A stretch of DNA of 64,000 nucleotides from Piedraia hortae CBS 480.64 (GCA_010093745.1 MU005971.1:124001-188000), one strand, 5' to 3'. Shown: positions 30,095 through 61,032, counted from the first letter of the stretch. Program-made: numbers and translations. The notes: generated by a model from the sequence alone, not told the origin.

Positions 30095-30622
30095 TTAACA
30101 TGTTTTATGGAATGCAGGTGGGTTGCGAACATAGACGGTCTCGGTCATCGGCGCATTTACAAACGCATTCGCTGCGTTCAATTGAGCAGTCTCAAGGCCG
30201 CAAGCTGCAGTAATGCTCATCAATACTCTGAACACTTTGGCGACCAATGTAGCAGAGTAGGCATCGTCCTTTGTCACCGGCTGCAGATCTCCCCTTGCGC
30301 AGAGTTTTGCCTTAAGCTTCTCCAGACAATTGTTGCTATCCATTTCATACGTAAAGACCCATCTTACCGGGAGGACTGGTTGCTTTACGTCTTTCTCTTG
30401 ACAAACTTCAAAGGTGTTTTTACCCCAAAGTGTTTCGTATTACGCCCTTGCTGCTTGGCAAAATTCCCTTTCGAATGGATGTTGTTTAAGTTTGTGCCAG
30501 TGCTCTGGTGGGGGTGGCAATTTGGAACAGTGGGGTTTCTTCGGCTTGCACCTTATTCCGGTGAAAAAGGATCGATAGTAGATAACTGGTGTTGCAGAGC
30601 TCGATAATTTCTCATGGAAAGC
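30095..30622 (-). mobile_element. Fragment of a second Ty1/copia element (pre-RT and RT N-terminus), truncated
   Basis: Translates to PEHWHKLKQHPFEREF...VLPVRWVFTYEMD...KAKLCARGDLQ...QLNAANAFVNAPM...VYVRNPP. This is paralogous to, but clearly different from, 32050-32460. Confidence 0.85.
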
Positions 30623-30886
30623 TGTCGGAAGGAGGAAGGGATCTACTCACATCATTCCGAGCTTGGTGAATGCTGACGCAGTCAACATTGTGTGTGATAC
30701 CTCACCATGGAATCCGTCTGAGGTCAAGAGAAGGCTTGCACCGCAAGACTAGTCTAAACTCTCTTCGCGGCCCCAATCGCATTCGCCGTGCCAACGTCCT
30801 TTGAGGTAACCACGCTCCAGGGGAAACATCCTCCATGGATAAAAACCCTGGAGAGTCCGGTGCCCTATCTACCTAGGCATCTGACA
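30623..30886 (-). mobile_element. 3' LTR of the main copia element (264 bp)
   Basis: On - it begins TGTCAGA immediately after a polypurine tract and ends TCCGACA (6/7 inverted repeat). Confidence 0.75.
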
Positions 30887-30909
30887 CCCCCCCTCTCCCC
30901 CGCCCCCCC
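30887..30909 (-). other. Polypurine tract of the copia element
   Basis: GGGGGGGCGGGGGAGAGGGGGGG on -, between the RNase H end and the LTR TG. Confidence 0.75.
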
Positions 30910-30919
30910 ACCTTCTCAG

Positions 30920-33900
30920 GCAGTTCTGAGCATCAGATGGTCGACAAACACCTGATGCGGCTGACGAGGAAGTGACTTGGTAAAGCAGTCTGCCTGCATG
31001 CAGTTAGTTGCTAACCAACTTGCCTACAGCCTTCCTGCGGCTATCTCTTGTCTTAGCCAGCACGAGGATATGTCCACGTGCTTCAATTTTGTCACCAGTC
31101 GTGGCGTGTCAACCGATAGTAATCCGATTGTCTGCTTGTTGTCACAAGCTGTTGAGACTTCTTTGTCAAAGTGTAGGACTACAGGGTTCAAGATCCTCAT
31201 GGCTTCATATTGTCTCATGACCACGTTCTGCAAAGCGTATAGCTCCGCCTCTGTACTAGATGTCGTGACGGCAGTCTGCTTTTGGGAGCCTCAGTCCACA
31301 GGGTTACCAAACAGTTTGAGCAACCACCCTTTGGTGGATTCCCTGTCACTTGCATCATCGGCAAATGCGGCATCACCATACGCGGCGAACGGGTCCCCAG
31401 CGTCAGCATTGTACCCAAACACGAGGCTACGTCTCTTAGTGTCGTGCAGATACTTTATGCAGCTGAGTGCATTCTGAAGGTCATTCTGAGTTAGGTTGCT
31501 GGATTTTCTGCCTAAGTAGGCAGCCGTGTACGCAATATCTGGACATGACACAGTTGCCGCATACTGAAGCGAACCGACAATACGCTGATATAGCGCTTTG
31601 TCAGCCGGTGTCTGGCTAGGATCGTTATATTATTCTTCCAGGCCCGTCGTCGGCTTTTGTTTTGGCGTTTGCTTAGCAAATTTGACGCCCAGTTTTCAAT
31701 GTATGCTTCTTGACTGATCCGCAAGCGCTTCGCCTCTCCGTCCCTGCGAACTTTCACTCCTAAAAACCATTGCAACTCCTCCAAGTGTCTTAGCTCGATT
31801 TCCTTCGATATAGACTCGAAGAGACCATGGACACGCCGTTTCTTTTCTCGACAATAGTTGGCGACCATATCATCGACGAAGAAGAATATAATAACGTCCT
31901 CATTTTGAAACACACAAGGCTCGTCTGGTACGGGTTTGAGTCCATGGGCGATCAGGGTTTTGCTCAGCAGATCGTACTATAGTTTGGGAGATGACGCAGC
32001 CCGTATAGAGCTCGCTTGAGTCTGAGTACTTTCTCCTCTTGTTGGAGCCCAGAAGGGCAACGAATGTGCACCATCTCCGTCATTTTAGCGTCAATGAAAG
32101 CGTTCAATGCATCATTTTGCGATGTCTCTAAATCGCAGATAGCCACGGGGAGCCAGCAACATTCTGAATGTTCTTACTGCAAAGGTGACCGCATGAACGT
32201 CTTCCCTATCAACTGTTTGGAGATCGCCGGGAACGCACAGGCGAGCTTTGTGCTTCTGCAGTTCGTCCTTATCGTTGAGCTTGTAAGTGAAGACCCAACG
32301 AACTGGTAGTATGAAGCCTTTGGCTGAATTTGCATCCACTACTTCGAAATTTTCGCGGTTGCAGAGAGCATCATACTCCTTCTGGGCAGCTTCACGGAAA
32401 TGAACAGACTGTGGATGCTTCTTGAGGTCATGCCAATGCTCCTGTGGTTCCGATAGGTTCGACCTGTGCGTAGGCATATCCATCGGCTTGTACTTCTGAC
32501 CCTGAAAGAGCGTCCTATAGTAGAGCATTGGCAACGGCACATCAACGATGGCAATGTGAAAAATCCTCCGTGGATTTCTCTCTCTGCGCGACCCTTCTGC
32601 CAAATTTTTGTCTGTATTAAGGTTTGACTGTCCTCCGAGTGAACTAGCCACTTCAGGTAATGACGCCTCCGATGGTAACGTGCTAAGAGGTATTGGGGGG
32701 CCTGTCATACTGAGGTTCTATAACCGTCGGGCAATTTTCGGTACGCTGTGATGAAATTTTCTTTCTGGTCTCAATTCTTGACATGTAGCGAAACTCTGAT
32801 TCCTCTAGAGCAGCGTCTTCTTACTAGCCGTCTAGTTCGATCTGCAGAGCCTCCGAGTTTCCTAAAGGCTTCCGATCTTCAGCCGGTATGTAAAACTCCG
32901 ATTCATTGAACACAACATCACGAACTTTTACAACTCTGTCCATCTGTGGCAACCAAACATCGTAGATGTTTCTGGCTGTGACTCCCACCAATTATCCTTG
33001 AATCGACTTAGCCTCTAGCTTTTGAAGCTTTGCCAAGTTCTTGCGTAGCACATAAGTCTTGCAACCTGGTACTCGCAATATTGAGATATCTGGTTTAGTG
33101 CCTGTTAGCATCTCAAAAGGGGTCTTCCAATCGAGATCTCTTTCCGGGGACTGATTCAGTATCCAACAGGCCAACAGGCCAATCCTGCGAACTTTGGGTA
33201 CATTTGGACAGGAATGTTGAGTGACGGCGCATGGACCGTATCTTCTGTGCCAGCATCCCTCCCCCCAGCTCGCTTGCTAGACCATTCGGTTCTGGGTTAC
33301 GAGCAGGAGTGGTGTAGACAATGATACGTTTTGCTGCTAGATGGTTTTGGGTCAAATTTTCAATTAACGTTTCACCGTCTGTGAAGATATCTTTGGGACA
33401 TGCGCAATATTGATTTTCCACCCAAGCAAGCCATTCGGGTATTACCTGCTGAATGTCGGATTTCTGATAACAGCAGTAAACCGTGTTAAATTTAGTATGC
33501 GTGTCGGTGGAATGTATCGCATAACGTTCTCCGTTGAACGCCCAGGGGAAGATTGTTATGTCCATATGGACAGTAGCGAAAGCCTCTGCTAGACGATTCT
33601 TGGGATCCCTGCGGATGATGTTATGCATCTTCGATTCTACGCAAGGTTGACATTTGATCCAGTATGGCGCTGTCTTAACATTCTTTACACCCTGGCACGA
33701 TGCCTGAAGTTGAGCAAGGGCCTCGTCACCTATATGTCCCTTCCTGGCGTGCCAACCAGGTTCAGGCTTCGCCGGTATTGCTGCAATTAGGAACTGCCGA
33801 CGGCCAGCTGGATTCGCGACTTCCAACAAGGTGAGCTTGCCCATAGAAAATGTTTTCGCGAATATCTCATCTTGCTAAGTTTGAATGTGTCGGCGTGGAT

Positions 33901-35191: not shown

Positions 35192-35602
35192 TGTAGCGAT
35201 GGTGCTCTCGTGGATGGGAGTGCGTAGCGGCCCGAACCAGGAGGACGTAGCGATAGACAGAGATCAACGACAGGGACAGTAAAAGATGCAGGTGGGTAGG
35301 AGTCAATACCAGTGTCGATGTGATAGTGTGAATGACTATGTGTGTGTCCGTATCTCAATGAGGGGACGTCGGAATAAGTAATCTTAACCGGTGGCCCGGT
35401 GACATCACGTCATGATATGCGTCATCTATGACTCACCAGCCTACATTAGCGGAGCGCATTCGCCATGTCACATCTGGCATGACCCTGAGAGAAAACCTCT
35501 ATGAGGGAAAAACCTAGGGTGCAGCCGTTAGTGTAGGGGGTATAGCTGACTTGGTTTGCAAGTGTCCCGCATACGCGCTAGCGGCGACGCTTGACTCAAA
35601 CA
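35192..35602 (-). mobile_element. LTR, family 1 (variant with extra internal sequence)
   Basis: Homologous along its length to 39196-39555 (inverted) and 55200-55561 (direct), with TG...CA ends. Confidence 0.88.
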
Positions 35603-35879
35603 CAACTGCACGGTTCAACCCTGCCATTCTAAAATCATCGGAGAAAAGTAAAGTGCGAGAGTATATCCAAGTCTGTTGCATACGGCCTCGTTCAGCTTCA
35701 CTCATGAAGGGCTGAGAGTCGAAATCGATGACCCAGCCTACTACATCCCAGAAAAAGAGAGACAAACACCATGAACATCCATCAATTCTACTGGAACTTT
35801 ACAGAGAATCCCAACCACACCCCACCACCCCTCCATCGATGAGAACGGCTAGTGCATTCGGATTTTTTAATTTCAATGT

Positions 35880-36653
35880 TCAATCCTCCTCAGCAGAGTC
35901 CTCTTGCACCTCCTCATACGCCCCATTGATTCTAGATTCGGGTTGTCTGATGGCCCATTCCTTCCAAGCGGCCCAGATTCGATAAGACAACCCAACACTT
36001 TCACCCTCAAACGTAACCAGGTCCGCATTGTATTGATCCCATTCCTCTTCCAAATCCACAGACCGGATGTTGTCGAGGATCAGACTCATTAGCGAGGCAA
36101 TAACCGTAGGTTTGTCAGGAAATCCCCTTTCTCGGATATCGGATGGTGTATAAGCCTTGTATGCACGTTTTCCGTCGCGCAAGGTAGGATGGTCCAGCGA
36201 TATTCGAATGCCATGTCGGCCGAGCTCCCAGGCCATAGGGTCCTTGGTGGGGGGCTGGAAGTTATGCAAGAGCACCATGTTTACTTGTAGGCCTTGGAGC
36301 TCGTCCCTTGTGCAAATGATTGGGTCGATTCTAGGATAAATGTTAGAGTTGCGCTTGACAAACAGAGAGGGTAGGCATGCGTACGATGAAATGGCGGCGG
36401 TTTGAATAGCGCGGTCGAGGGGGTTGGTTTCCTTTAAGCCGTCGACAATTCGCACGGCGTGGCTGGCGGGGTGTGAGTACCAGATGTATAGTTCTGAGGG
36501 CGTGGGCGCTTCAAGAGGAGCGGATAGGTCGATGCGATGGTGGTAAAGATCCCACAGGTCGGAAACGGAGGCAAATTTCAATCGGGTTCTGCTCTCGGTT
36601 AGATGCGTCATCAAACACTCCATTGCATAGGCACAGTATGTCTTTGTGGCCAT
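35880..36653 (-). CDS. Divergent AMMECR1-like protein, copy 1 (239 aa, 2 exons)
   Basis: Intron 36331-36384 (GTACGC...CTAAC...TAG). Motifs MATKTYCAYAMECL, LLHNF..DPMAWELGRHGIRI, Y.P.DIRERG and FEGESVGLSY..W..WKEW match the fungal AMMECR1 layout as I recall it. Confidence 0.8.
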   Translation of the reverse strand: MATKTYCAYAMECLMTHLTESRTRLKFASVSDLWDLYHHRIDLSAPLEAPTPSELYIWYSHPASHAVRIVDGLKETNPLDRAIQTAAISSYACLPSLFVKRNSNIYPRIDPIICTRDELQGLQVNMVLLHNFQPPTKDPMAWELGRHGIRISLDHPTLRDGKRAYKAYTPSDIRERGFPDKPTVIASLMSLILDNIRSVDLEEEWDQYNADLVTFEGESVGLSYRIWAAWKEWAIRQPESRINGAYEEVQEDSAEED

Positions 36654-37753
36654 GTTGTGAATCTGCGGGAGCTGGGTTGGAGGTTGTCTGTAGATGAGCT
36701 AGATATGCAATGACTCGCGTGCTTGGTTCGTTCGTCAAGGCGAATGTTGCCATGGTAAATACTCTGTTTGTATAGTCGCGCCTTCCCCAAGACGAGCTTA
36801 CTACTTCGCTTGGATCATCATCCTCTACACCGAATAGAGAGTGGACAGTCATTGCCTGTCTCGCATTCAATCAATTCGGGTACTTCTCGGCAGAACGCGA
36901 ATTTAGCTAGATCCAATAGAAGACTTGTCCTAGGTCTCGGATCACTCAGTATTGTGGGGCAATCAATACTTGTCCATGGACCAATCATCACAAGTGACTC
37001 TTGAGTCAGTCTCCGCATGGCTTGACACACTTGTGCCTTTTCCACAACACTACGTAACTCTGGTACTTCAACAGCAAGACCGGGCAACGTAGACCGCCAC
37101 ACGCATACCCGAGCATCACCTCGATGCCCCAATAACCATCTCGGACTTTACAAGACAGCAAGCAATTCGCTCTGCGGCAGCCTTTTGTCGGCTATTCCGA
37201 GAGCACCGCACCGACAAATAACAATTTCTGGTTCGTGTGGGGCGGGCACACTCAAGTTCAATTCCCGATGCCGCTCAAACCTTTTACAGTACAACCCACG
37301 CAATGCAGCCGAGATCTTAAGCAACTCCCACCCTTGCCAGGCAGCGTGCAGGCGATACCAGGCTATAGCTACACGCCGTGCATGCTCCCATAAATAGACA
37401 CGTATTATAAGCACTGACACGATAATATCCTTTCACTCTTGCTATAGCAATTATATACACTGGTCCGAACTTCGAGGCCAGCGGCATCCATTGACGGATT
37501 CTTCACGGCACAGATGTGGCAGGCTTATTCATCGGCCGTACCCAAACGGTAAAGCGAACTCGCCTGGGTACTTGTTCCCGTTTGCTACCGCACGGAATGT
37601 CAATCCCAATATTTAGCACCGTGATTCCACAAAGCTATCGATAGGAGACCGTCTTACCACCCGCGGTGATTTTCCCGTGGGTTCTGCATCGAAATTTGAC
37701 ATGAAAGCAATAGCCCTTGGTTATGGGACAGCTTTTGTCTCATTTCATTGACG

Positions 37754-37933
37754 TGTGGAGGGAAGCACTGGGAGTGTGCACGGACCCAGGTTGGAGCAAG
37801 ATATTGTCTCGTATGGAAGCTATAGAGGGCCAGAGGGCCTGCTATACACTCATGAGCTCCTGCACAAGAAGGCGCGCGCCTGGTGAACCACACCCATGGA
37901 ACAACCATAGGACGAAAGGGCTAACCCGTAACA
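37754..37933 (-). mobile_element. Solo LTR, family 2 (180 bp)
   Basis: Inverted homolog of 60832-61032 with TG...CA ends, flanked by TGACG / TGTCG (4/5 TSD). Confidence 0.85.
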
Positions 37934-38033
37934 TGTCGTAAAGACGATGAAAACACACAGTAAAGCGTGCGATTCAATCTTCTTGATTGAAAGTTCGGCC
38001 CATCGAGGACGATAGCTTGAGACTGGCGGTGAA

Positions 38034-38455
38034 TGTTGGCATGAAGTCTCGTTGCTATCAGTGTACGATGCCACTGCGCGACACCTCTTACACCAGCAGC
38101 TGCACCCTAGGTTTTGTCCTCACAGAGGTTTCCCTCAGGGTCATGTCGCATGCGACATGGTGAATGCGCCCTGCTACTGTTATGAGGTGAGTCATGGAGT
38201 AAGACTGCATGCTGACAGTCTTACTGCATGTATGACCACTTGCTTATGGTCATACAATTGATGACTCTTCATACGAGGCTACGCACGGGCCTTCCAGCCC
38301 AGAATATATTCTCTGATGTTCCCTCGAAGATATACTTGTATTCACTCATAAAACACATCTCTACTTTCCATCCATCGTTCTCACTCATACATACTATCTG
38401 TCTTTTTCAGTGAACACATAATAGTCATCTGCCTCGTCACCATGAGTTGTTATCA
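38034..38455 (+). mobile_element. Chimeric or variant solo LTR, first ~145 bp related to family 1
   Basis: Starts TGTTGG and matches family 1 to ~38177, then diverges. It is preceded by GTGAA, and CA+GTGAA occurs at both 38409 and 38455, so the right end is ambiguous. Confidence 0.7.
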
Positions 38456-39195
38456 GTGAAAACTTAATCTTGTCCCTTGCTCTTGCAAGCTTGGCCTAGG
38501 ATGATTCATCTTTCACATAATAGTGCAGAGAGGTCAGGACGACTTTATCCAGGTGTGTGATAGCCCACTATGAAAATCGGGACTAGAGGTGTGTTCTCAA
38601 AGGAAATATCGATTGCAATTCCAAACGCACCTGCGCTAGGGGCAAAGACTTTGAAGACCAGGGAGAAGCCGCCAAGCTTGCTCCATTATTAAGCGCATCT
38701 CTGCACTTATAAAATAAACGTTTTGAGTGGGTTAGCGAGCTTCCACCACTATCTTCCCTCCCGTCTTTGGCATACAGGATCGCGAAGTCCAAGAAATCGT
38801 CTATGAATTCGTAGGTGTGGTGGCTCCAGAACACTTGTCGCTGGCTGCTTCGCCTACCGAAGATGTTAGAATGTGATCAAAAATTCTCAAATGGTCGCAA
38901 GCATCCGTAATAAAGCTTGGGCGGTGTCGAAGACGAACCTGATATCCTACGAGGCGGCGGCTAATGTCGATCCTTGCCGGTGCCTCGGTATGTCGATCGT
39001 ATGACCGACATTGTTGTCGCTGATAGATTAGTTGTTTTTGTACATAGTTCCGCCCGCCGGCTCGGGCGGGCAGTAGCGTTGTCTTTCTTCCATTGCTGTT
39101 TTCTGTCCACACCAGTGATATGTCCAACACTGTTGTTGAGAAGTATCAGTGCCATACCTCGGCCTGATAACAAAGACTATATACAAAGAAAGATT

Positions 39196-39555
39196 TGTTG
39201 AATTTAAGCATCGCTGCTAGCGCGTACGCGGGGCACTTGCATAGCAAGTCAGCGATATCTCTTACACTACCAGCTGCACCCTAGGTTTTTCCCTCACAGA
39301 GGTTTTCCCTCAGGGTCATGTCAGATGTGATATGGTGAATGCGCCCTGCTAGTGTACAACGTGACGTTACCGGCCCACCGGTATAGAATACTTATTCCGA
39401 CGTCCCCTCATAGAGATATATGGGCATTCACACTGTCATATCGACACTGGTATTGACTCATATCCATCTATCTCTGTCCTGTCCCTGTTTCCGTCCATCG
39501 CTTCGTCCTCTTCAGGCCGCAGCGCACTCTCACCCACGGGAGCTCAATCGTAACA
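39196..39555 (+). mobile_element. Solo LTR, family 1 (360 bp)
   Basis: TGTTG...TAACA ends. Near-collinear reverse complement of 55200-55561. Confidence 0.9.
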
Positions 39556-40699
39556 ACATCCTGTAGAGCAAAATGCTCAAAGAGCATGATAAAGAGGACA
39601 ATGGAACAATGGAGTGATATTTGAGACTGTCTGAACAATAAGCTACTTGTATAGAAGCTCGCTGCTGAATATTAGATAATACGACTCTGTTAAAACTCAA
39701 TCTTCAGAACGATTACGCTACGCAACAACTGTCTTCCAACAAACACAACGTCCCGAAATGACTGAGAAGCACTTAGCCCACTAGACGACGTTCGTCAAAC
39801 GACCGAAGTTGACAATGACGCATCTTTCACTGCCTATGAGGACCATCGTCTGCAGACTTTTCCAGCGCTGATGGGTACCAGGATATACCCTCATACCCTT
39901 CGGTGGTTCACCAACAAGGGCCTAGCGATTACTCCCGCAACTCCATGGATGCATAATCTTGGAAGCTTCGACACGTGTGCAGTATCACTAGAGGTTAGTA
40001 TATGCTCATGGGCTCATTCATGACGGCATGAAGGGGAATATGGCCGGGTTCATGAGCCTCTCGTGCGAGCCCATGTGCAAGCTACGCCTGCCGGCAGTTG
40101 ATGACAAGCGGCGGCATGGCGTCTTTGCTGATGAAGATGGAGTGTCGACTACCATGTACCGACTGGTGGCTGAAGGATTTGGGGTCATCATCGGCGGACA
40201 ATCTAGGGCGCGCTGGTATTTTGGCTATGGAAATGTCTTTCTCCGACACCCACTACCTCTTCAGACGCAGATTGTCGGTTGGTCTTGCGATGCCTATGAT
40301 GAGGCTAGGCCTTTGCCATATCAATGGCAGGGACAAGGCGTGGAGAAAACTTGAAGTGGAAGCATCAAGGGCTTCCAAGGTCACCTGCTGGAAGCTCGAT
40401 GCGGCTTTGAAGGGTTTGGGAAGCAGTGAGACAATAACTGGGCTTGGAACAGATACCCGCAGTCCATTCTCGCATCTATCATCGCCTGCTTCGCCCACTC
40501 TCAGGCTCCTCCACTTTAATCATGAGCCGCGGATACAGGCAGCCGTGGGCTCGGGGTTGCGTTCCAACAACAGGACCTGGACCATTGCTGGGTATGCGTC
40601 TTGCCCTGGGAAGGGTGTATCAGATTGAGCGTGCGTAGAAAGCCCGATGCAAATACGAGGTTCATACGCCGCCTGACTCTGCTGGCTCCGTCTGCCAGG

Positions 40700-41640
40700 A
40701 CGGAAAATTTGATCCTGACAGATGGCGTGAGTATGGCCATCTCTTCGATGCAAAAGAATTGTGACCAAAGTAGAGGCACTCTCGGGATTACGAGAATCCC
40801 TACACGATGATAAGGAGTTTGATTCGAAGTTTTTGCTGTGGCTAGACTGTACGATATCACGCAATGCATGCAGAGTCACGCCACACACGATCCAAGTATC
40901 ACTGTCCGATGATGAGGAGGTTGATCCTGGGCTGTGCGTGTATAATGTCACGAAACACCTGGAGAGACTCGCCAAGCCAAAATCCAGAGCGTATGTGGGC
41001 GAAGATGAAGTGTTCAATCTCAAGCCGAGGTCATCTTCGGTGGGATTGTAGTTTGACGTCGCCAAGTGATGTTTCAAGTTGATAAAAGCCGCTGTTTCCC
41101 TATCTCTTAGCAAGAAATTTGTATAAGAAAAGAGGACGAAGATATCAAGACCCATATCCCCTATCTCCCCTAAACATATGTTGATCTGTAAGGAGATGGT
41201 ACCCCAATTTACAGCAGTAAGCATAAGGAAGCTATCAAGGTTGCGTCTGTCTACGTGATGCCCCTTATGTGGGACCACCTTTCCCCCTTCGTCACAGCAC
41301 GGAAAATTTAGAATTGACGGGACCGGCTGAGGGCAATGCATCTCGACCACAAGTTTGACCCTGCCATTGTGGGCCCTTTGGGAGACTATGGTAGACGTCA
41401 ACTGTAATGACACAAGGCAGAGAAAAATGCCTGGCCATTTCTGCATGCTCTTGAGTAGAATTTCATGAAATGGACTTTGACCTAGTTCCATGAAGTCTAT
41501 TGGAGTAATTGGACTGGCGATCAACAATTGGTAAAGACCTGGACCAAGAACACTTCCGCATTTAAGAAGCTCTTTGCCCGCCGCTAGTATAAAGAAGGTC
41601 CAGGCTGTTAACACTTATAAGCGAGTTCATGCCACGCGAG
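40700..41640 (+). pseudogene. Probable relic of an unidentified gene
   Basis: Protein-like segments on + (LHDDKEFDSKFLLWLDC...; VEFHEMDFDLVP*SLLE*LDWRSTIG...) are broken by stops and frame changes. No family recognised. Confidence 0.3.
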
Positions 41641-41681
41641 TCTAACGCTTAAATCCCAACTAATACATCCAAGCATCCTCA

Positions 41682-42451
41682 TCAATAGAAAATGCCCTCC
41701 CTCGCATTCTCATATGCCTCATGACGCCTCGCCTCGGGCTGCATGACGGCCCACTCCTTCCATGCCACCCAATTGCAATAACTCATACCAACGGCCTCGC
41801 CCTCGAACGCGACAATCTCCCCTTTATATCTCTCCCAGTCTTCCACCCAATTTAGAGACGCGGCGCTTCCAAGAAGACATCGCACCAGTGTCGCGACAAC
41901 CGAAGGCTTGTCAACGAAGCCCAGTTCTCGGATCTCATATGGTGAGTACCCTTTATATGTTTTCCACCCCCTCTGCGTGGAGGGAAAGTCTAGAGTCACT
42001 CGGATGCCTTGCAGGCCAAATTCCCAGGCCATGGGGTTCCTGCTGGCGCGCGTGAAATTGTGCAGGAGCATCATCTTCACTTCTAGACCTTGTAGCTGGT
42101 CCAGTGTGCAGATATATGGGTTGATTCTAGGGGTAAACATTAGCATGACTGTTGACAGACGAAGGAGAGGAAGAATACGTACGATCGAAGTGCAACGGTT
42201 TTGATAGCACAATCGAGGACAGTGGTTTGAATTGTTGCTTTAACGTCTCGTATGTGGGGATTGGTAGAGTTCACGTACCAGATGAATAACATCGCGCCAG
42301 TGGGCACTTCGAGGGGGGAGGTTAGGTACATGTAGTCGTTGTACTTGTCCCATAGCTGAGAAACTGAGGCAAGACTCAATTGGGTTGCGTTTCCGGTTAA
42401 GTAAGCCATGAAACATTCTAGTGCGTAGGCGCAGTATGTCTTCATGGCCAT
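41682..42451 (-). CDS. Divergent AMMECR1-like protein, copy 2 (237 aa, 2 exons)
   Basis: Intron 42127-42182 (GTACGT...CTAAT...TAG) joins the 103-aa and 176-aa ORFs. Exon 1 is 269 nt, as in copy 1, and the two proteins align without gaps. Confidence 0.8.
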
Positions 42452-44087
42452 GTTGTGATATGGAGTTTGATTGAAACTCTCGGTGGGGATTTGCTTGGGG
42501 GTGTGTGGCTTCTGTAAAGAGCTAAATGTACCTGAGATCGCGTTATTATACGGGCCATGAGGGGAATGTTGACGGGGTAATATACCCTGTTTAAGTGGTT
42601 ATGCACGCATGTTGACAAGATTTGCATTCTAATGACTGTTCAGTCTTGTCCTTTCTACTCGCATTCGCATTGGACTCAACGGCGTGCAGACACTCACCAG
42701 CATGAAATTTTTCGGGCCGTGCGTCTCTAGAAAGACAGCAGACCATTGATTTATTATTTTGACAGATCACTTGTCTTGATCTCAACTGATGAATTCGTGC
42801 GCGTGCCAAGAAAGCTGCACTTGGACCACCTATGATGCATGGCCCACGTGGGGATGTATCGCCGGTCTGGTCCACTTTTGCTTTTTACCACACAGCGCGC
42901 CTCTCGACTTTGACGACAATATCCTGCGATGCATAGTTATATATACCTGATGATGAACCCAATGCGTCAGCATCTAGTTTGGACTTCGCTCCACAGGCAG
43001 TATTGCAATTTGCGGAAATCCAGGATATCATGTCGATTGGAGGACATCGATATGAGGAACCAGCAACACCTCAACCTCCTCGATTCGGTGGAGTAGCGCT
43101 ATAAACACCTAGAAACTTAACTATCTTGCACGTCAGGAATCTCGAAACAACAAGGGAAACTGGAGCCGACAACTGAAAACACCAGTAACTCTGAAGTATC
43201 AAGGGGCATCGCCTCGTAATCCCGTTGCGCACTGTAGACAAGTCAGGGATCTGTCGGAAATGACACACGGATTAGCAACAATGCATGGTCTGTGAATATC
43301 AATCTTGGTACCACACAAACCTCTCTCATTACATCACCAATATTACACCTACTTGGTATATACAGCCAGGTATTCATGTTCACACTAGCTTTTGCCACAA
43401 AGCTCCCCGCGGTGTAGCCGCCATCTTGGGCAAACGCTATCCTCGAGACTGCGCACATGGGATATCTCCCTGATACAACTTGCCGCGCGTAACCCCGTCG
43501 CTGGGCCCGCATGACAAGCACTGCAACTATGATGTGCTCTAACATTTACTCAAGCAAGTATACCATCTGAGCCGCACCATCAGCCAGCGGCATACAGATG
43601 GATTTCATAACCTGTATGGGACAGAAAGGACGGCAATGGAGGACTGGAGACCCTGATCAAATAAAGCTATGGAGAGGGGGCTGCCTTTTCACCGGTGGTG
43701 ATCTACTTGGGGGTTTCAAGGTTGACATTTTACTAGCGCTCGCAAGAAACCGCGGTGGAAAGCTTGTGCGACTGTGGACTCGAGCACCAGGCTATAGGTC
43801 TTGCAAGTCCAAGGACGTCTGACCTTACAATCCTCTACTTTCGCGGAGTATCGTCTGTACCAACGGACTTCTCAGCATAATTTGCGTTGATAGCGCTCCC
43901 CTTGCGTGGGTGCCTAAGGGCGCGTATGATCCCGCCAAGGCATTTCTCTCCTCAACCTAAGCGAAACAAAGCGGGAGCACATCTACTGCATCCTCTCGTT
44001 CAAGCCCGCCCCGAAGCGGACCACGGATGCGTATGACGCCCGGATCTGCTGTTGTGCTTGGGCCCACTTCGAAAGACCCAGCATTCC

Positions 44088-45285: not shown

Positions 45286-47915
45286 ATGGTTAAGTGAGTT
45301 ATCTTTGGGACCAGATGTGTTATGGATGTGCTGACTCGGCAGCTTCACGGTTGACGAGATCCGTGGGCTCATGGACAATCCGCTCAACATCCGGAACATG
45401 TCCGTGATTGCCCACGTTGACCATGGCAAATCTACCCTTACCGACTCCCTTGTCGAAAACGCAGGAATTATTTCGTCCCAGAACGCTGGAAGGCAGCGCT
45501 ACATGGACACGCGCCCTGACGAGCAAGAGCGTGGCGTAACGATCAAGTCCACTGCCATCTCGCTCTACGGCCAGCTGGCTGACGAGGAAGATCTGAAGGA
45601 GATTCCGGTCAAGACCGAGAAGAACGAATTCCTGGTCAACCTGATTGACTCGCCCGGCCACGTCGACTTTTCTTCTGAGGTGACTGCCGCCCTGCGCGTT
45701 ACCGATGGCGCCCTGGTCGTGGTCGACACTATCGAGGGTGTTTGTGTGCAGACAGAGACTGTGCTTCGCCAGGCACTGGGTGAGCGCATCAAGCCCGTTG
45801 TCATTATCAACAAGGTTGACCGTGCGCTTCTGGAACTGCAGCTCTCAAAGGAAGACCTTTTCCAGAGCTTTTCCCGTGTCATCGAGTCTGTCAATGTCGT
45901 TATTGCCACATATTTCGACAAGGCGCTTGGTGACGTGCAGGTGCACCCGGAAAAGGGCACGGTTGCCTTTGGTGCCGGTCTTCAGGGCTGGGCCTTCACG
46001 ATTCGCCAGTTCGCGGCCAAGTACGCCAAGAAGTTCGGTGTTGACAAGAAGAAGATGATGGAGAGGCTTTGGGTAAGTTTAAAGAGTCCTGCAGCTCAGC
46101 AATAACTAATACTCGTGGTAGGGCGATAACTACTTTAACCCAAAGACCAAGAAATGGACAAAGACAGGTACCCACGAGGGCCAGACTTTGGAACGCGCCT
46201 TCAACCAGTTCTGCTTGGACCCAATCTTCCGCATTTTCCAGACCGTCATGGGCGGCAAGCAGGATGAGATTGACAAGCTCCTTGAGAAGCTCGAAATCAA
46301 GATCAGCAAAGCGGACAGGGAGAAAGAGGCGAAGAAGGTGTTGAGGGCCGTCATGCATGGCTTCCTGCCGGCTGCTGATGCACTGATGGAGATGATGATT
46401 CTCCACCTGCCGTCTCCTGCCACGGCGCAAAAGTACCGCGTGGAGACGTTGTATGAGGGTCCCCTTGACGATGAAGCAGCTATCGCCATTCGCGACTGCG
46501 ATGCCAAGGCAAAGTTAATGTTATACGTGTCCAAGATGGTGCCGACCTCGGACAAGGGCCGATTTTACGCTTTCGGTCGCGTCTTCTCTGGCACTGCCAG
46601 GCCGGGTCCGCAGGTTCGTATCCAGGGTCCCAACTACACGCCTGGAAAAAAGGAAGACTTGTTCATCAAGTCTATTCAGCGTACGGTGCTCATGATGGGC
46701 CGCAACACCGAGCAAATTGACGATGTCCCGGCTGGAAACATTCTCGGCTTGGTCGGTGTTGATCAGTTCCTGCTTAAGTCTGGCACTCTGACAGAGTTCC
46801 CAAACGCACACAACCTCAAGGTCATGAAGTTCTCTGTTTCTCCCGTCGTGCAGCGCTCTGTGGAGGTCAAGAACGGCAGTGACCTGCCCAAGCTGGTCGA
46901 AGGTCTCAAGCGCCTTTCCAAGTCTGATCCTTGTGTGCTGACCTACATTTCCGAGTCCGGCGAGCACGTTGTTGCCGGTGCTGGTGAGTTGCATTTGGAA
47001 ATTTGCTTGAAGGATCTTGAAGAGGACCACGCCGGTGTACCGCTGCGTGTGTCTGACCCCGTTGTTCAGTACCGTGAGAGCGTCAACGCCGAATCACGCA
47101 TGCAGGCTTTGTCAAAGTCACCCAACAAGCACAACCGTCTCTATGTTGTGGCCCAACCTCTGGGCGAGGCTGTTTCCAAGGATATCGAGTCTGGCAAGAT
47201 TGGTCCTCGTGATGACTTCAAGGCTCGCGCGCGCATTCTGGCGGACGAGCACGAATGGGAAGTTACAGACGCGCGCAAGATCTGGTGTTTCGGGCCCGAC
47301 ACCAACGGTGCCAACGTTCTGGTTGACCAGACCAAGGCCGTGCAGTATCTCAACGAAATCAAGGATTCCGTCGTCTCCGGGTTCCAGTGGGCCACTAAGG
47401 AAGGACCGATTGCTGAGGAGCCTATGCGCTCCATCCGCTTTAACATCATGGACGTGACGCTCCATGCCGACGCCATCCATCGTGGCGGTGGACAGATTAT
47501 CCCTACGGCTCGTCGCGTGCTTTACGCAGCGACGCTCCTTGCTCAGCCCGGTCTCCTTGAGCCCGTCTTTCTGGTGGAGATTCAGGTACCTGAGCAGGCC
47601 ATGGGCGGCATCTACGGTGTGCTCACGCGAAGGCGTGGCCATGTCTTTGAGGAGGCACAGCGTCCTGGCACTCCTCTCTTCAACATTAAGGCATACCTTC
47701 CTGTGAACGAGTCCTTTGGCTTCAACGCCGACCTTCGCCAGGCCACTTCGGGTCAAGCTTTCCCCCAGTCCGTCTTCGATCACTGGCAGATCCTCCCAGG
47801 TGGCGACGTGACTGATAAGACCACAAAGCCCGGACAGATCGTCGAAGCAATGCGGAAACGGAAAGGTCTCAAGCCGGATGTGCCTGGCTACGAAAATTAC
47901 TACGACAAGTTGTAG
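45286..47915 (+). CDS. EFT2: Translation elongation factor 2 (eEF2), 843 aa, 3 exons
   Basis: Introns 45294-45342 and 46073-46121. MVNFTVDEIR start; motifs [17 protein letters not shown]; diphthamide loop [16 protein letters not shown] end. Confidence 0.98.
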
Positions 47916-48170
47916 GCGCCTATTGAATGAAAGGCTTGCAGTTAGCCTAGTCTTCGAATAGAATGTCAAGACTGGCTGAGTTAGACTGATCAATGAAAGT
48001 GATTTCTTCATGGGCATTGTCACTTCTCTTTGCCAGTAAGCCCACAGCTCAACTACAAAGCGCAAGTGGCGGTTTAGATCCGTCCCTATCAATGAACCTG
48101 TATCATGGAAGCAATCTGCTTTTCCAGTCCTTCGGCATCGTAAGATAACACAAAAGCAAGCCCTGCAAAC

Positions 48171-48230
48171 AAAAGAAAGAAAAAGAAAGAAAAAGAAAGA
48201 AAAAGAAAGAAAAAGAAAGAAAAAGAAAAA
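48171..48230. repeat. Tandem repeat (AAAAGAAAGA) x ~6
   Basis: Five perfect 10-bp units plus one variant, between the convergent 3' ends of EFT2 and the next gene. Confidence 0.95.
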
Positions 48231-48292
48231 GATACATAACATCGTAAGAAAACAGATCCCATGCCAGAAAGGAAACAAAGAAAGTGAAACCC

Positions 48293-49001
48293 TCACCTGA
48301 CCCCATTTCTAACAGCATCCTCATACCTCGGCGAGGGTAAGTTGCCCGCGTCCGTGCCCGTTTCTGTGACCTCCACCGCCTTCCAATGCAGATATTTCGG
48401 ATCCACCCGAACACTGTTCCTCCAACGACCGTATGCGGGTGGGGGCTGCGTTAGCGACCTCCCCCTTGGCTCCGTAAGTAGTTCTTGCTGCGTAAGCTGC
48501 CCCTGGCCTATCGGTCGTCGTTGAGATCCAGGGCTGTCGAGCTCATCCCAAATCTCCCCGATTCCGACTCTATCTGCAGAATTATCGTCCTCCTGAACAT
48601 GCACCCGTATGGGTCGGGCAGGGAGGAAAGCACCCTCCACCTCCTCCTCACGTAGCTGCTGCGAGGGTCGCAATTCCTCGATACCAACCTCTGGGTCAGA
48701 AGAGAGGTTACATCGATGGAAGATCCAGCAGCGGAGAACGAAGAACAGAAATGCGAAGAAGATGGAGAAAAATATCATGCCGAAGATAATGTTGAATGCA
48801 GCTTCGTGGCGTGTACTGGGAACAGAGATGAGTAGGGCTGAGTCTGTGGATTTCCAGGTTAGATTTGGGAGGAAGGATGTAGCAAGAAGGGACGCTTCGC
48901 TACATACAGGCTATGGCGATGACGAGGACGATTACGCCAGTGCAGAGGATGAAGGGTCCATGATTTGGGGTCCTTTTGGGGTTCGGGAGATTCAATTTCA
49001 T
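48293..49001 (-). CDS. Hypothetical two-transmembrane protein with PPxY motif (214 aa, 2 exons)
   Basis: ATG at 49001 and intron 48844-48907 (GTATGT...CTAAC...CAG) extend the 161-aa ORF in frame. Two hydrophobic segments, then PPPAYGRWRNSVRVDP. Confidence 0.75.
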
Positions 49002-50921: not shown

Positions 50922-51101
50922 GATTTCAGAGCATGATTAGCGGGCGTTTTGGAGGATTTGTTGTTCATGTTTAATGTTCGATGTCTGAGCTGGACAGATG
51001 AAGTCGTTGGTGGGGCAGATCAGCGGGACGGACCGAACACGGCAATTCTTATCAGATGGCCGACGAAAGATTGATTTCACCGACCACGCAACTTGAAGAC
51101 C

Positions 51102-52631
51102 ATGGTTTCTCTTCCAGCCAAGTCGACGGGGCCTCATCCGTCAAAGATCCATACCGCTGCGCCGTATGTAACGCAAGGCTACATTGACCGCCGGCTTTTT
51201 CCGCCCAACATTTCGGGTGACGTGCAACTACGCAGTGCGGCAGAGGCGCGCGAAGACCGCGAACGTCTCCTCGGCGTGACTTACATAGACCAGACGCGGC
51301 GAGCGCTTCATCTGCCTGTTCGCACTTACACGACGGCGTGCACGCTGTACCACAAGTTCCGCCTGGCCCATCCCGGTGCCGACTACTTGTGGACCGATGG
51401 CGCCGCCGCCAGTTTGCTTGCTAGCTGCAAGATAGAAGACACGCTAAAGAAGAGCAGAGACATTCTGGCGGCAGCGTGGAATCTCAAAAACGGCGGCATA
51501 GCTCTTGACGAGCAGATGGCCGCTGACGACACTTATTTTGATCTGCCCAGTCGCACTGTTATCGGCGTTGAGCGGCTCGTTCTCGAGGCTAGCGGTTTTG
51601 ACTTCCGGTCAAAATACCCACACAATCTGCTGGTGCGCTTGCTGAAGAGCATGGGGCCGCAGACGGATGATGGGGCTCGGCGCATAGGCCGCACGGCCTG
51701 GACGGTCCTGACCGACCTCGGTCGAACATTTGCCTTCTTAAAGCAGACGTCGGCCACATTGGCCATTGCTAGCATTGAGCTGGCAGCCCGTATAGAGGGT
51801 GAAGCCGGTGACGCCGTGCTGCAGCAGGTTCTCGCGCTCGATTTGTCCACATGGGCTACCAGCAGAGAGGAAATTGCAGAAACCCTACTGGACGCCCTGG
51901 ACCTCTACACCCAACACGCTACGAACTCCATCCTAGGCACTAAGTTCCATCTAAACGATTGGATCAAGCTCCGGCTGGTGGTGCAGGAAAAGTGCGACCA
52001 GGCTGGCTATCCGCGCTACACCGAAGGTCCGAGCCGGGGCAGCCTGTACTGTAAGACAAAAATGGTCAACGGACACCCAACGCCCGTTTCCCCGACCTCC
52101 AACGGCCATCCCTTGAGTGAAGCCTCTTTCCCCGCCGTACCCGAAGGCGGCGGCACCCTGCGCTTCATGCTGAACCCCGTCCTCGCCGCTGACGAAACTG
52201 CAATCGTGCAGCGTTACTTCATTGACGAATGGGAAGAATACGAAGAAGAAGTCGACGTCACAGTCGCTAGCCACGACCGCGAGGGCAGAGATCGATATAC
52301 AAACTATGCCTCCCGAGCTGAAAACAGAAGACCGCCTGTCAAAAGACCCATTGACGATTCAAGAGACTATCGTGACCGTGACCGCGATAGAGACAGGGTC
52401 AGTGACAGGGGAAGGGATAGGGATGGAGAGTGGGGCTTCGCACAATCGGCCTCGCACTCTCGCTCATACGCCGGTAGCACTCCCGCTGGGGATGCGCAGA
52501 GAAGAGATATGCGGCGTAACTACGAGCGTAGGACGTACCCGTATGAGAGGAGGGACGATAGGCGCAGCAGAGGTGGTTATCATACTGGTGCGTCGAGATA
52601 TGACGATAGAAGGGGTGGACATGCCAGGTAG
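51102..52631 (+). CDS. Transcriptional cyclin (cyclin K/Ctk2-like) with RD/RS-rich tail
   Basis: Cyclin box (LHLPVRTYTTACTLYHKF...ASCKIEDTLKKSRDI...ERLVLEASGFDF) and an RDRDRD low-complexity C-terminus. Confidence 0.85.
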   Translation: MVSLPAKSTGPHPSKIHTAAPYVTQGYIDRRLFPPNISGDVQLRSAAEAREDRERLLGVTYIDQTRRALHLPVRTYTTACTLYHKFRLAHPGADYLWTDGAAASLLASCKIEDTLKKSRDILAAAWNLKNGGIALDEQMAADDTYFDLPSRTVIGVERLVLEASGFDFRSKYPHNLLVRLLKSMGPQTDDGARRIGRTAWTVLTDLGRTFAFLKQTSATLAIASIELAARIEGEAGDAVLQQVLALDLSTWATSREEIAETLLDALDLYTQHATNSILGTKFHLNDWIKLRLVVQEKCDQAGYPRYTEGPSRGSLYCKTKMVNGHPTPVSPTSNGHPLSEASFPAVPEGGGTLRFMLNPVLAADETAIVQRYFIDEWEEYEEEVDVTVASHDREGRDRYTNYASRAENRRPPVKRPIDDSRDYRDRDRDRDRVSDRGRDRDGEWGFAQSASHSRSYAGSTPAGDAQRRDMRRNYERRTYPYERRDDRRSRGGYHTGASRYDDRRGGHAR

Positions 52632-55199: not shown

Positions 55200-55561
55200 T
55201 GTAGCGATAAGGCCCTCGTGGATGGGTGCGCAGCGGCCCGAACTAAGAGGACGAAGCGATAGACGGAAACAGGAACAGGACAGATGTAGATGGATGAGTC
55301 AATACCAGTGTCAATATGACAGAGTGAATGACTATCTATCTCAAAATGAGGGGACGTCAGAATGAAAATTCAGTACCGGTGGGCCGGTGACGTCACGCCG
55401 TACACTAGTAGGGCGCATTCGCCGTGTCACACATGACAAGACCCTGAGGGGAAAACACTGTGAAGGAAAAACCTAGGGTGCAGCTGGTAGTGTAAGAGGT
55501 ATCGCTGACTTGCTATGCAAGTGCCCCGCATACGCGCTAGCGGCGATACTTGAATCCAACA
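55200..55561 (-). mobile_element. Solo LTR, family 1 (362 bp)
   Basis: TG...CA ends, flanked by AGAAA / AGAGA (4/5 TSD). Homologous to 39196-39555 and 35192-35602. Confidence 0.92.
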
Positions 55562-56377
55562 AGAGAGATCTTGATGAAGTGTTGTGAATATGCGGTATAT
55601 TACGCGCATTATTAGTAACCGTCGCTCGGCTCTCGACTTCACGCGTCAACTAGTTTTCCGTAGAGATTTGTATGCAGGTACACATCTGCTCACAATTATA
55701 ATATGAAGTTTCTGATTTTTAACTTTGCCGCCGTGAACTCCTCTTCTGTCGCACAGCCCTTTGATTCATGCCCCGCCCAATCTGTCTTTCTTCATTGTCC
55801 AAATCGAACAATCTGGTATGTTGCCTGTTTCTGGGCGTCTACATGTCGCAATTTGCTTCTCTTCGGTAAGTATATCGTGGACGGACGCCATGTGCGCTGT
55901 ACACGCCCCAGAGCTGAACCCCGAGTCGCTGCTCTTCCCGTGCCATCTGGCTTCTCTTAAGACGACCAGCGCGCTTATGACCTCGCTGCGCTATTTGAAA
56001 TTCGGGCCACTCTGCTTCCACTTTGAGCTTATTCTATGTCATTGCTGCGTGAGGAAGGATGTTGCGAAGAAAAAAAGCGCGGAAAAACGGCTCGGAAATA
56101 TTCATTTCTTCCTGCGCTAACTAAATTACACTAGTCTTCTTTGAAGACTTTGAAGAAATGATAGTTATATATAAATTGCAGCGTTCGGCCCGTCCTGTCA
56201 CGGATGTAACCCATACATAAGGTTCATTCCGCGATTTCAAACTTGACATGGTGTGACAAGTGGACCGAATGGCTTGGCAGCATTTTTTTTTCTGCCACTC
56301 CAGTATTACGAAATGAATTCTACAAAACCACATCCACATCCCCGTGCCCACTCCGCGGCACAAGCACTCCAACCACT

Positions 56378-57543
56378 ATGATTAGAGAAGAAACTCATCA
56401 TAATCAGGCGCATGATCCCGCGCGGACGACGACTGGGATGGGATTATGTAAATCCATTCGTGATTCATCTCGGCAGGCGTACCACCCACCACTTACGAAC
56501 TATACCAGGGTCACTGTCGTAAGGGTGGATTTCGAAAACAACGACACGGACAACGTTATTCTGCACGACGAGATGGAAACCATTCTGAAATTTCAATTTG
56601 GCTGTGACGCTTGGCGCATCAGGCTTCCAGCGACAGGCTTAAGTTGGTCTCCCATTTTGAACATGATGGACATTTTCCAGAGACTTATCACAGCTGGACA
56701 TACCGAAAAGGATATGCTCGTAATCCTGATGTTTTCCGGCCAGGGGGGAATCGTCGATGGGAGATTCCACGTTGGGTTTGTAAAATGATACCGTTACGTG
56801 AACTAGCTAATCGGTTCAGTGGCGATTTCAATTGCAGAAGAGGCACTTTTACTGGAAACACACTGGACTGGCATCACATGACCGAACTAATAGCCAAGAG
56901 GGAATGCGATCAGGTCCACATCCTCGACTGCTGGTACACCGGTAAAGCAACGACGCCCTATGCTGAAGTTCTCGCCGCAACATCGGCGGCTGAAGTTGCA
57001 ACCAACGTACTTCGAGCTCACTTCAATAAGTTCCTGGTCGAAGAGCTGAAAGCCATGGACAGGCCTACTGCCTTGTCATCGCTCCATGCGCGTATCGTGG
57101 CCAAGAGTATGATGTACGGACTAGAACATTTGCCTGTCTTCGTAGGACGACACGAACGCCCACCCATCTTCCTTCAGAAGGCATATCCGATAGACCAGAT
57201 CACAGATCACCGGCAAAGGTTTAATTCTCCGCGCATCCTTCTTACGTGCCACCTTCAAGAGACTTTGGGAACGAAGGATATTGCTACATTGAAACGACAG
57301 ATGTCGGAGAACGTCCCGAAAACAGTCCATGATATTGACGTGTGTGTGGAGGGGTCCTTCAAAACGAATTCTTCTCTCCTGCTGATTTCTGTCCCTGTGG
57401 AAGTTTGGAGCTACCTTCCCAAAACTTCAGCACTCAACTTTGTGGGCCTGATTAATTCTAGAAATGAATTGTTGGGCTGTGGTGCGGAGGAGGTGCAAGA
57501 ATTGAGTATCCAGCCGTGGATGATGGAGCTTGAATCTCCGTAG
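56378..57543 (+). CDS. Caspase/peptidase C14-like fold protein, predicted catalytically inactive (~373 aa, 2 exons)
   Basis: Intron 56776-56819 (GTTTGT...CTAAT...CAG) joins the two ORFs in frame. The layout YTRVTVVRVDFE..D / LVILMFSGQG / VHILDCW / EVLAA / F...LVEEL / LHARI / VEGSF..SSLLLISVP..VW..LP..FVG..SRN matches fungal caspase-like proteins as I recall them. The start could instead be 56438. Confidence 0.7.
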
Positions 57544-60831: not shown

Positions 60832-61032
60832 TGTTACGGGCTAGCACTTTCGTCCCATTGTTGTTCCATGGGTGCGGTTCACCAGGCGCGCGCGTGCGCG
60901 ATACGCGCGCTTTCTTGTGCAGGAGCTCATGAGTACATAGCAGGCCCTCTGGCTCTCTGGCCCTCTATATCTTCCATAAGAGACAATATTTTGCTCGAAC
61001 CTGGGTCCGTACCCCCAGTACTTCCCTTCACA
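60832..61032 (+). mobile_element. Solo LTR, family 2 (201 bp)
   Basis: TGTTACGGG...TTCACA ends. Inverted homolog of 37754-37933 with an extra CG-rich duplication. Confidence 0.85.

Follow-up and report, generated by a model that had tools for sequence, protein, structure and literature searches.

How do two copies of an AMMECR1-like gene come to stay open and spliced in a region littered with decayed transposons, when both lack the motifs proposed to form the active site of the family? The question is raised by a tandem gene pair, here called A and B, in a 64,000-nt stretch of Piedraia hortae CBS 480.64 (GCA_010093745.1, MU005971.1:124001-188000); we refer to this whole stretch as the window and count all positions from its first letter. 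With moderate confidence we hold that A and B are lineage-restricted AMMECR1 paralogues of P. hortae, expressed and under selection, that are now non-catalytic.

Structure and splicing of the gene pair

Gene A (35880-36653) and gene B (41682-42451) lie in tandem on the minus strand, 5.8 kb apart, each with two exons; the spliced products have 239 and 237 amino acids, respectively. The coding part of exon 1 is 269 nt long in both genes (36385-36653 in A, with the ATG at 36653; 42183-42451 in B, with the ATG at 42451) and is followed by a phase-2 GT..AG intron that splits a Ser codon after its second base. This intron measures 54 nt in A (36331-36384, GTACGC..CTAAC..TAG, with CTAAC as the branch site) and 56 nt in B (42127-42182, GTACGT..GCTAAT..TAG); both begin with GTACG, end with TAG and carry a fungal-type branch site. 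The coding part of exon 2 covers 35880-36330 in A, including the TGA stop at 35880-35882, and 41682-42126 in B, also including a TGA stop, within an exon (41654-42126) whose 3′ untranslated region (UTR) comprises at least 41654-41681. The two spliced proteins align without gaps, 118 of 237 residues being identical, and neither contains a stop or frameshift; BLASTP of the exon products gives 43/88 and 74/143 identical residues. Reading and splicing the minus strand confirmed the coordinates, 269-nt first exons, phase-2 introns and intact splice signals given in a preliminary description of this DNA, and its hand count of 118/237, gapless and with open frames, was reproduced exactly by alignment. 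The spliced product of B is P0002, the NCBI hypothetical protein K470DRAFT_276040 of P. hortae CBS 480.64. The intron of A is stop-free and in frame, so a 257-amino-acid read-through form is possible; this form is present in the protein collection as P0001.

One run, X1, carried the stretch, and its assembled contigs were compared with positions 35700-42700. These contigs skip the gene A intron exactly (joint 36330→36385, 54 nt, depth 75) and do the same for gene B (joint 42126→42183, 56 nt, depth 15.7, shorter side 255 letters). On the gene A side, a 747-letter contig is identical to the DNA over 35700-36330 (its letters 117-747) and continues for 116 letters beyond the compared stretch, placing a 3′ UTR at 35700-35879, while contig coverage of 36385-36898 places the 5′ UTR at 36654-36898, of which approximately 170 nt beside the ATG can be aligned to gene B, with indels. 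For gene B, a single contig of 987 letters spans 41654-42126, then 42183-42528, and then runs further. A third joint (42528→42583, cut +3) removes an extra 54-nt GT..AG intron (42532-42585) in the gene B 5′ UTR (42452-42700); the homologous stretch of gene A has no acceptor and is unspliced, being contiguous in the 36385-36898 contig. All three joints read CT..AC on the plus strand and hence GT..AG on the minus strand. Contig depth falls to zero across 40848-41549 and is low in other parts of the transposon-rich island (27-45 kb) that holds the pair. Three GT..AG introns are skipped in the contigs and parts of the island have no coverage; we therefore take X1 to be RNA, and on that footing we take both genes to be transcribed and spliced from the minus strand. 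The junctions for 36331-36384 and 42127-42182, which the preliminary description had singled out, were looked for in RNA and both were found in these contigs.

AMMECR1 homology and predicted fold

A phmmer search with A against 1.84 billion representatives (E up to 0.001) returned 27 matches, made up of gene B, 25 Pfam AMMECR1 members and one ankyrin protein. The best canonical match was the AMMECR1 protein of Hortaea werneckii (P0003, E 4e-22), and the third match overall was P0004, the canonical copy of P. hortae itself (E 1.7e-15). When a profile of A and B was aligned by hhalign to one of 31 canonical sequences, the probability was 99.8 % (E 1.6e-29, 215 columns). A and B are true homologues of fungal AMMECR1, whose yeast representative is presumably YOR289W. 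Compared with canonical fungal members (PF01871; K470DRAFT_240355 and H. werneckii P0003), they show full-length homology and the same predicted two-domain fold, and they have in common with them the N-terminal MAT..CAY.FE.L helix, the TLL.NF / DP..W..G.HGIRI core and the Y.G..VGL.Y..W..W.EW tail typical of filamentous ascomycetes. Unlike these members, A and B do not have the long low-complexity insert after helix 2, and they carry two small insertions.

An AlphaFold2 (AF2) model of B, built with a 41-row alignment that includes canonical members, reached a predicted local distance difference test score (pLDDT) of 82.9 and displays the two interlocked RAGNYA domains and the cleft of AMMECR1. 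The five significant, and top, Foldseek matches of this model all belong to three archaeal AMMECR1 entries, and the probability was 1.00 for these alone. VIA-align likewise placed PH0010 (1vaj) first, with Z 12.3, a root-mean-square deviation of 3.2 and 175 residues aligned, followed by Q8PZK8 (1zq7) and ST0229 (1wsc) with Z 9.1 and 8.5. After the AMMECR1 entries came the little-finger domains of Y-family polymerases (Z 4-5, residues 112-198), which have a related RAGNYA fold according to PMC2034487. These archaeal structures are the best structural matches of B (174-178 residues aligned); set against this, the identity is only 12-16 %, the alignment behind the model holds canonical fungal members, and the motif strand is of low confidence. 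A PDB sequence search with A gave a single chance match (E 0.18), and an ESM Atlas search with A, for which the Atlas model has a pLDDT of 0.31, gave no usable feature match and only structural rows with a template-modelling (TM) score <0.4. We infer that A and B retain the AMMECR1 scaffold. Membership in AMMECR1, as claimed in the preliminary description, is thus borne out by phmmer, hhalign and the structural matches, with both profile and fold matches found, though under the Pfam threshold.

Loss of the predicted active-site motifs

We compared motifs in an alignment of A and B with 31 canonical AMMECR1 proteins, in which a column was counted as conserved at ≥90 %. Canonical members keep 47-60 of the 60 conserved columns, A keeps 28, B keeps 26, and 23 are kept by both. 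The motif region of the first domain is the most altered, with 5/24 conserved columns kept by both genes as against 16/31 elsewhere in the protein. At the position of LRGCIGTF, A reads VRIVDGLK and B reads IRDVKATI. The Cys of the RGChG motif, present in 31/31 canonical rows, is Val in both copies, which bears out the reported loss of the LRGCIG Cys. The segments quoted at the time (LYIWY...VRIVDG in A, LFIWY...IRDVKA in B) are correct; the statement that only the Arg is kept does not hold, since A also retains the last Gly of the motif. The preliminary description overlooked that a second predicted catalytic motif, DxRa, is also deleted: a 6-column gap in A and B spans its A, D and R, each present in 31/31 canonical rows, and its aromatic residue is Ile in both genes. 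TYLPDV, EQGW and RKAGW.G are largely replaced.

Balaji and Aravind propose that RGChG and DxRa form the AMMECR1 active site, with the Cys thiol pointing into the cleft and the second RAGNYA domain serving as a substrate-binding floor (PMC2034487). A role in RNA modification is restated by Burroughs and Aravind, who mention one archaeal AMMECR1, from Vulcanisaeta, with a Cys to Ser change (PMC4075521). By the 2007 prediction A and B would be catalytically dead, with the floor domain better kept. The Vulcanisaeta protein resembles A and B in being a natural AMMECR1 without the predicted catalytic Cys. Unlike A and B, it is an archaeal protein that is canonical apart from one conservative change, and it has the usual gene neighbourhood (PMC4075521); in A and B both motifs are gone, and the genes are extra copies alongside an intact one.

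The DxRa deletion falls exactly at the exon junction of A and B, and in both genes the first base of exon 2 is the A of AG|A, at the Arg codon of the canonical motif. Given that the gap adjoins the acceptor and that exon 2 opens in this way, we offer the hypothesis that the acceptor (3′ splice site) may have shifted by 18 nt downstream, onto the AG of the motif's Arg codon, and so removed DxRa; a shift of this size would delete exactly six codons and keep the frame. In three protein fragments (P0011, P0015 and P0017) homology is lost just before SA..D.RF, as intron read-through at that point would give. The pair may thus offer a small case study of motif removal by a splice-site shift.

Selection on the pair

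Between A and B the Nei-Gojobori estimates of non-synonymous (dN) and synonymous (dS) divergence are 0.37 and 1.15, giving a dN/dS ratio (omega) of 0.32. By exon, omega is 0.44 in exon 1 and 0.26 in exon 2, with 0.52 over codons 45-100. Differences fall 83/62/111 on the three codon positions, and synonymous and non-synonymous proportions differ with a chi-square p of 2e-11. Neutral simulations at the observed divergence left both frames open in 0/5000 runs. The 711 coding bases contain no indel between A and B, whereas the alignable 170 nt of 5′ flank has several and the intron has 2; the genes are alike only from the stop codon to ~170 nt before the ATG. G+C content at third codon positions (GC3) is 0.58-0.60 in A and B, like that of host genes. 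In relative-rate tests with 6 outgroups B appeared slightly faster than A (for instance 27 versus 15 unique changes), a difference that is not significant (p 0.07-0.31). These patterns indicate moderate purifying selection on A and B. The earlier claim that the genes are under selection is therefore sustained by an omega well away from 1 and by the X1 evidence for expression.

Repeat-induced point mutation (RIP) was considered as the cause of the divergence and rejected, as the indices carry no RIP signal and the A-B differences comprise 137 transitions and 119 transversions. The whole window (1-64000) is without a RIP signature (TpA/ApT 0.59-0.74, composite index -0.49 to -0.74), transposon relics included; the relics have therefore decayed by ordinary mutation.

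Origin and spread

The canonical AMMECR1 of P. hortae, P0004 (K470DRAFT_240355), has 241 amino acids, reads LRGCLG and lies on another contig, of 675,829 bp, so that a copy of the LRGCIG type does exist elsewhere in the genome, where the preliminary description had advised looking for one. P0004 itself has evolved somewhat fast: its end branch measures 1.08 (median 0.48), the consensus segments LRGCIG and LFVTWN are LRGCLG and LFVSYN in this protein, and its low-complexity insert is much shorter than in relatives.

In the phylogeny A and B group together (support 100/100); the stem of their clade measures 3.07 changes per column, and the clade falls within a Capnodiales-type group (100/99). 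The free tree search places them beside Meristemomyces (98/84). Forcing A, B and the canonical P. hortae copy into one group raises the log-likelihood by 8.5 over that of the free tree, with a p of 0.68 in the approximately unbiased test (p-AU); duplication within the lineage therefore suffices. Transfer from another fungus was set aside as unneeded, given the better constrained tree, with the qualification that the branches are long and either placement is unsure. The motif losses are common to A and B and are therefore older than the split between them.

In word-based protein searches, A retrieved only B, and B only A. The exhaustive phmmer search with A found no further motif-less member, all returned fragments having canonical motifs, and tblastn found no third copy within the window. 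In metagenome contigs one of 141 pattern matches passed tblastn (L001); it aligns with residues 200-232 around the seed only, contains a stop and was rejected as a chance match. Among the matches listed in the AMMECR1 and Piedraia hortae literature, titles and abstract openings contain no description of motif-less fungal AMMECR1 copies. The preliminary description spoke of a lineage-specific expanded subfamily: the lineage restriction stands, as no similar copy was found in the searched proteins and metagenome contigs, and the expansion so far amounts to just two copies. Nor are A and B the sole AMMECR1 genes of the fungus with divergent orthologues widespread in relatives, a situation that would have spoken against the idea: a canonical copy is present and these searches found no like copies. 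Of 101 Dothideomycetes genomes compared in PMC7082219, that of P. hortae is the smallest, at 16.95 Mb, and has the lowest number of genes, 7,572; that two extra copies persist in it is slightly more remarkable for this reason.

A probably non-catalytic pair and its alternatives

A and B descend from a Capnodiales-type AMMECR1 and have each kept an intron, the normal gene being retained elsewhere in the genome. On their common, very long stem branch both proposed active-site motifs were lost, the Cys by replacement with Val and DxRa in the 6-residue deletion; the pair then split in tandem and diverged to 50 % identity under moderate purifying selection. A and B would probably act by binding alone, to the ligand or partner of AMMECR1, as regulators, competitors or adaptors rather than enzymes. 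RNA was proposed as the AMMECR1 ligand in 2007. The decoy or nucleic-acid-binding role suggested in the preliminary description is plausible.

Pseudoenzymes are catalytically dead paralogues kept for binding or regulation. A and B are like them in coming from a putative enzyme family, in having lost the predicted catalytic residues, and in being expressed and under purifying selection; unlike pseudoenzymes, they are dead relative to a prediction made for the parent family (PMC2034487). Expressed and selected copies that retain the scaffold and have neither predicted motif suggest that the scaffold may be used without catalysis. The pair, which can be set beside the canonical protein of the same fungus, thereby offers a handle for finding the binding target of AMMECR1. 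We consider it very improbable that A and B belong to a lineage-specific set of remodelled nuclear paralogues handling RNA or transcription, which would form a private pathway for RNA handling or the control of transposon transcripts and whose AMMECR1-like members would bind, and not modify, the substrate of the true enzyme. Beyond the interest of the motif loss, the pair is an ordinary case of duplication and divergence in a poorly sampled fungal lineage, and the suggestion of an undescribed system is unsupported.

Several observations weigh against a selected, expressed and non-catalytic AMMECR1 pair. With regard to family membership, A misses the Pfam gathering threshold of 25 bits (exon 2 scores 18.3 bits, E 0.0017, and the read-through form 17.8), and Pfam AMMECR1 searches with either exon of B or with P0002 gave no match. 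A control AF2 run with A and B alone as the alignment gave a pLDDT of 31, and therefore the fold evidence leans on the canonical rows; even with those rows the motif region of B (residues 41-80) is poorly modelled. The term non-catalytic rests on the 2007 prediction, the chemistry of AMMECR1 itself being only predicted, and the splice-shift step rests on three protein fragments. X1 is labelled 'RNA?' only as a guess, and its contigs reveal neither level nor strand. Finally, the omega of 0.32 is a pairwise mean and is compatible with a recent release of one copy from selection, and at 5 % total divergence 46 % of simulation runs leave one frame open and 22 % leave both open.

This last point is what a history of functionless duplicates, still transcribed and drifting towards pseudogenes, would draw on, together with the position of the genes in a decayed transposon-rich island, their strong divergence, the absence of the family motifs and the scores below the Pfam threshold. 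Such drift would have to account for frames that stay open without an indel after a dS of 1.15, matched in none of the 5000 neutral runs, for the omega of 0.32 (p 2e-11), for the conserved splice sites and 5′ flank and for the splicing of both genes in RNA contigs, all in a genome that ranks last in size and gene number among the 101 Dothideomycetes compared (PMC7082219). We regard it as quite unlikely. In another account, A and B are neofunctionalised enzymes, in which the cleft has been rebuilt around residues common to both for a different reaction. The long stem of 3.07 followed by constraint is the pattern expected after a change of function, and the genes share many non-canonical residues, including IWY, R68, V70 and YK.Y.P..IRE.GF.DKP in place of ATYLPDVA.EQGW. 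What makes this unlikely in our view is that constraint between A and B is lowest in the motif region (17/42 identical residues versus 71/142 elsewhere; omega of 0.52 over codons 45-100), which is also the least confidently folded part of the B model.

The surroundings of gene A suggest another possibility, namely that A and B are host-gene copies captured, spread and expressed by a transposon, since A lies between inverted copies of a ~400-nt repeat (35192-35602 and 39195-39550); in the RNA contigs this repeat reaches very high depth. No such copies border gene B, the two arms are only ~75 % alike, and other copies of the repeat (38078-38198 and 55200-55562) stand alone. Neither gene has a transposase beside it, no third copy was found in the window and no other annotated protein copy was found, and the stretch alike in A and B is bounded by the stop codon and a point ~170 nt 5′ of the ATG. 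On these grounds we consider mobile-element cargo very improbable. A non-catalytic, selected pair of paralogues is the reading that we retain.

Genomic context of the pair

Two blocks of the window, 1-27 kb and 45-53 kb, are occupied by housekeeping genes (among them Sec7, 2-oxoacid dehydrogenase E2, EF3, thiolase, SulP, End3 and EF2), and the 27-45 kb island with A and B sits between them. Although rich in transposons, the island belongs to a core region and is not accessory DNA. The image of a transposon graveyard, used in the preliminary description, is apt for the decayed Ty1/copia remains and the repeats around gene A, with the correction that the island lies between housekeeping genes; a tie to transposon-rich accessory DNA is not supported, given that the neighbours are core genes (Sec7, EF3, EF2, thiolase) and that the repeats flank gene A only. 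No observation connects the function of the pair with the elements.

By profile matches, the decayed Ty1/copia remains extend over 30098-33874 on the minus strand and comprise, all on that strand, three RVT_2 pieces (30098-30439, 31515-31976 and 32115-32717), an SH3_retrovirus piece (32995-33276) and weak gag-pre-integrase and integrase pieces (33116-33874). Two of the RVT_2 pieces cover the same profile start, which implies that at least two elements, or a nested one, are present. Immediately beyond the 3′ side of gene B, a stop-free frame of 364 codons (40523-41614, minus strand; GC3 0.51) has no Pfam match and only weak Atlas feature matches (best 0.89, low recognition), and no X1 contig lies over 40848-41549; this frame has probably decayed or arisen by chance. 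In the gene-rich flank there are long open frames of 396 codons at 47118-48308 (minus strand), 518 codons at 51075-52631 (plus strand) and 311 codons at 56608-57543 (plus strand), for which no Pfam family was found at E 0.001.

The dispersed ~400-nt repeat, which belongs to the surroundings of the genes and not to the genes themselves, has one copy just 3′ of gene A (35192-35602), inverted relative to the copy between A and B (39195-39550), and repeat comparison found further copies at 38078-38198 and 55200-55562; the copies are 73-88 % alike among themselves. An Rfam search over the whole window, this repeat included, gave 0 matches. Summed X1 depth over the copies is 1200-3500, as against 16-160 over genes A and B, so that the element is either many-copy or highly transcribed. 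A second dispersed repeat of ~200 nt occurs in two inverted copies that are 79 % alike, at 37754-37933 and 60832-61032.

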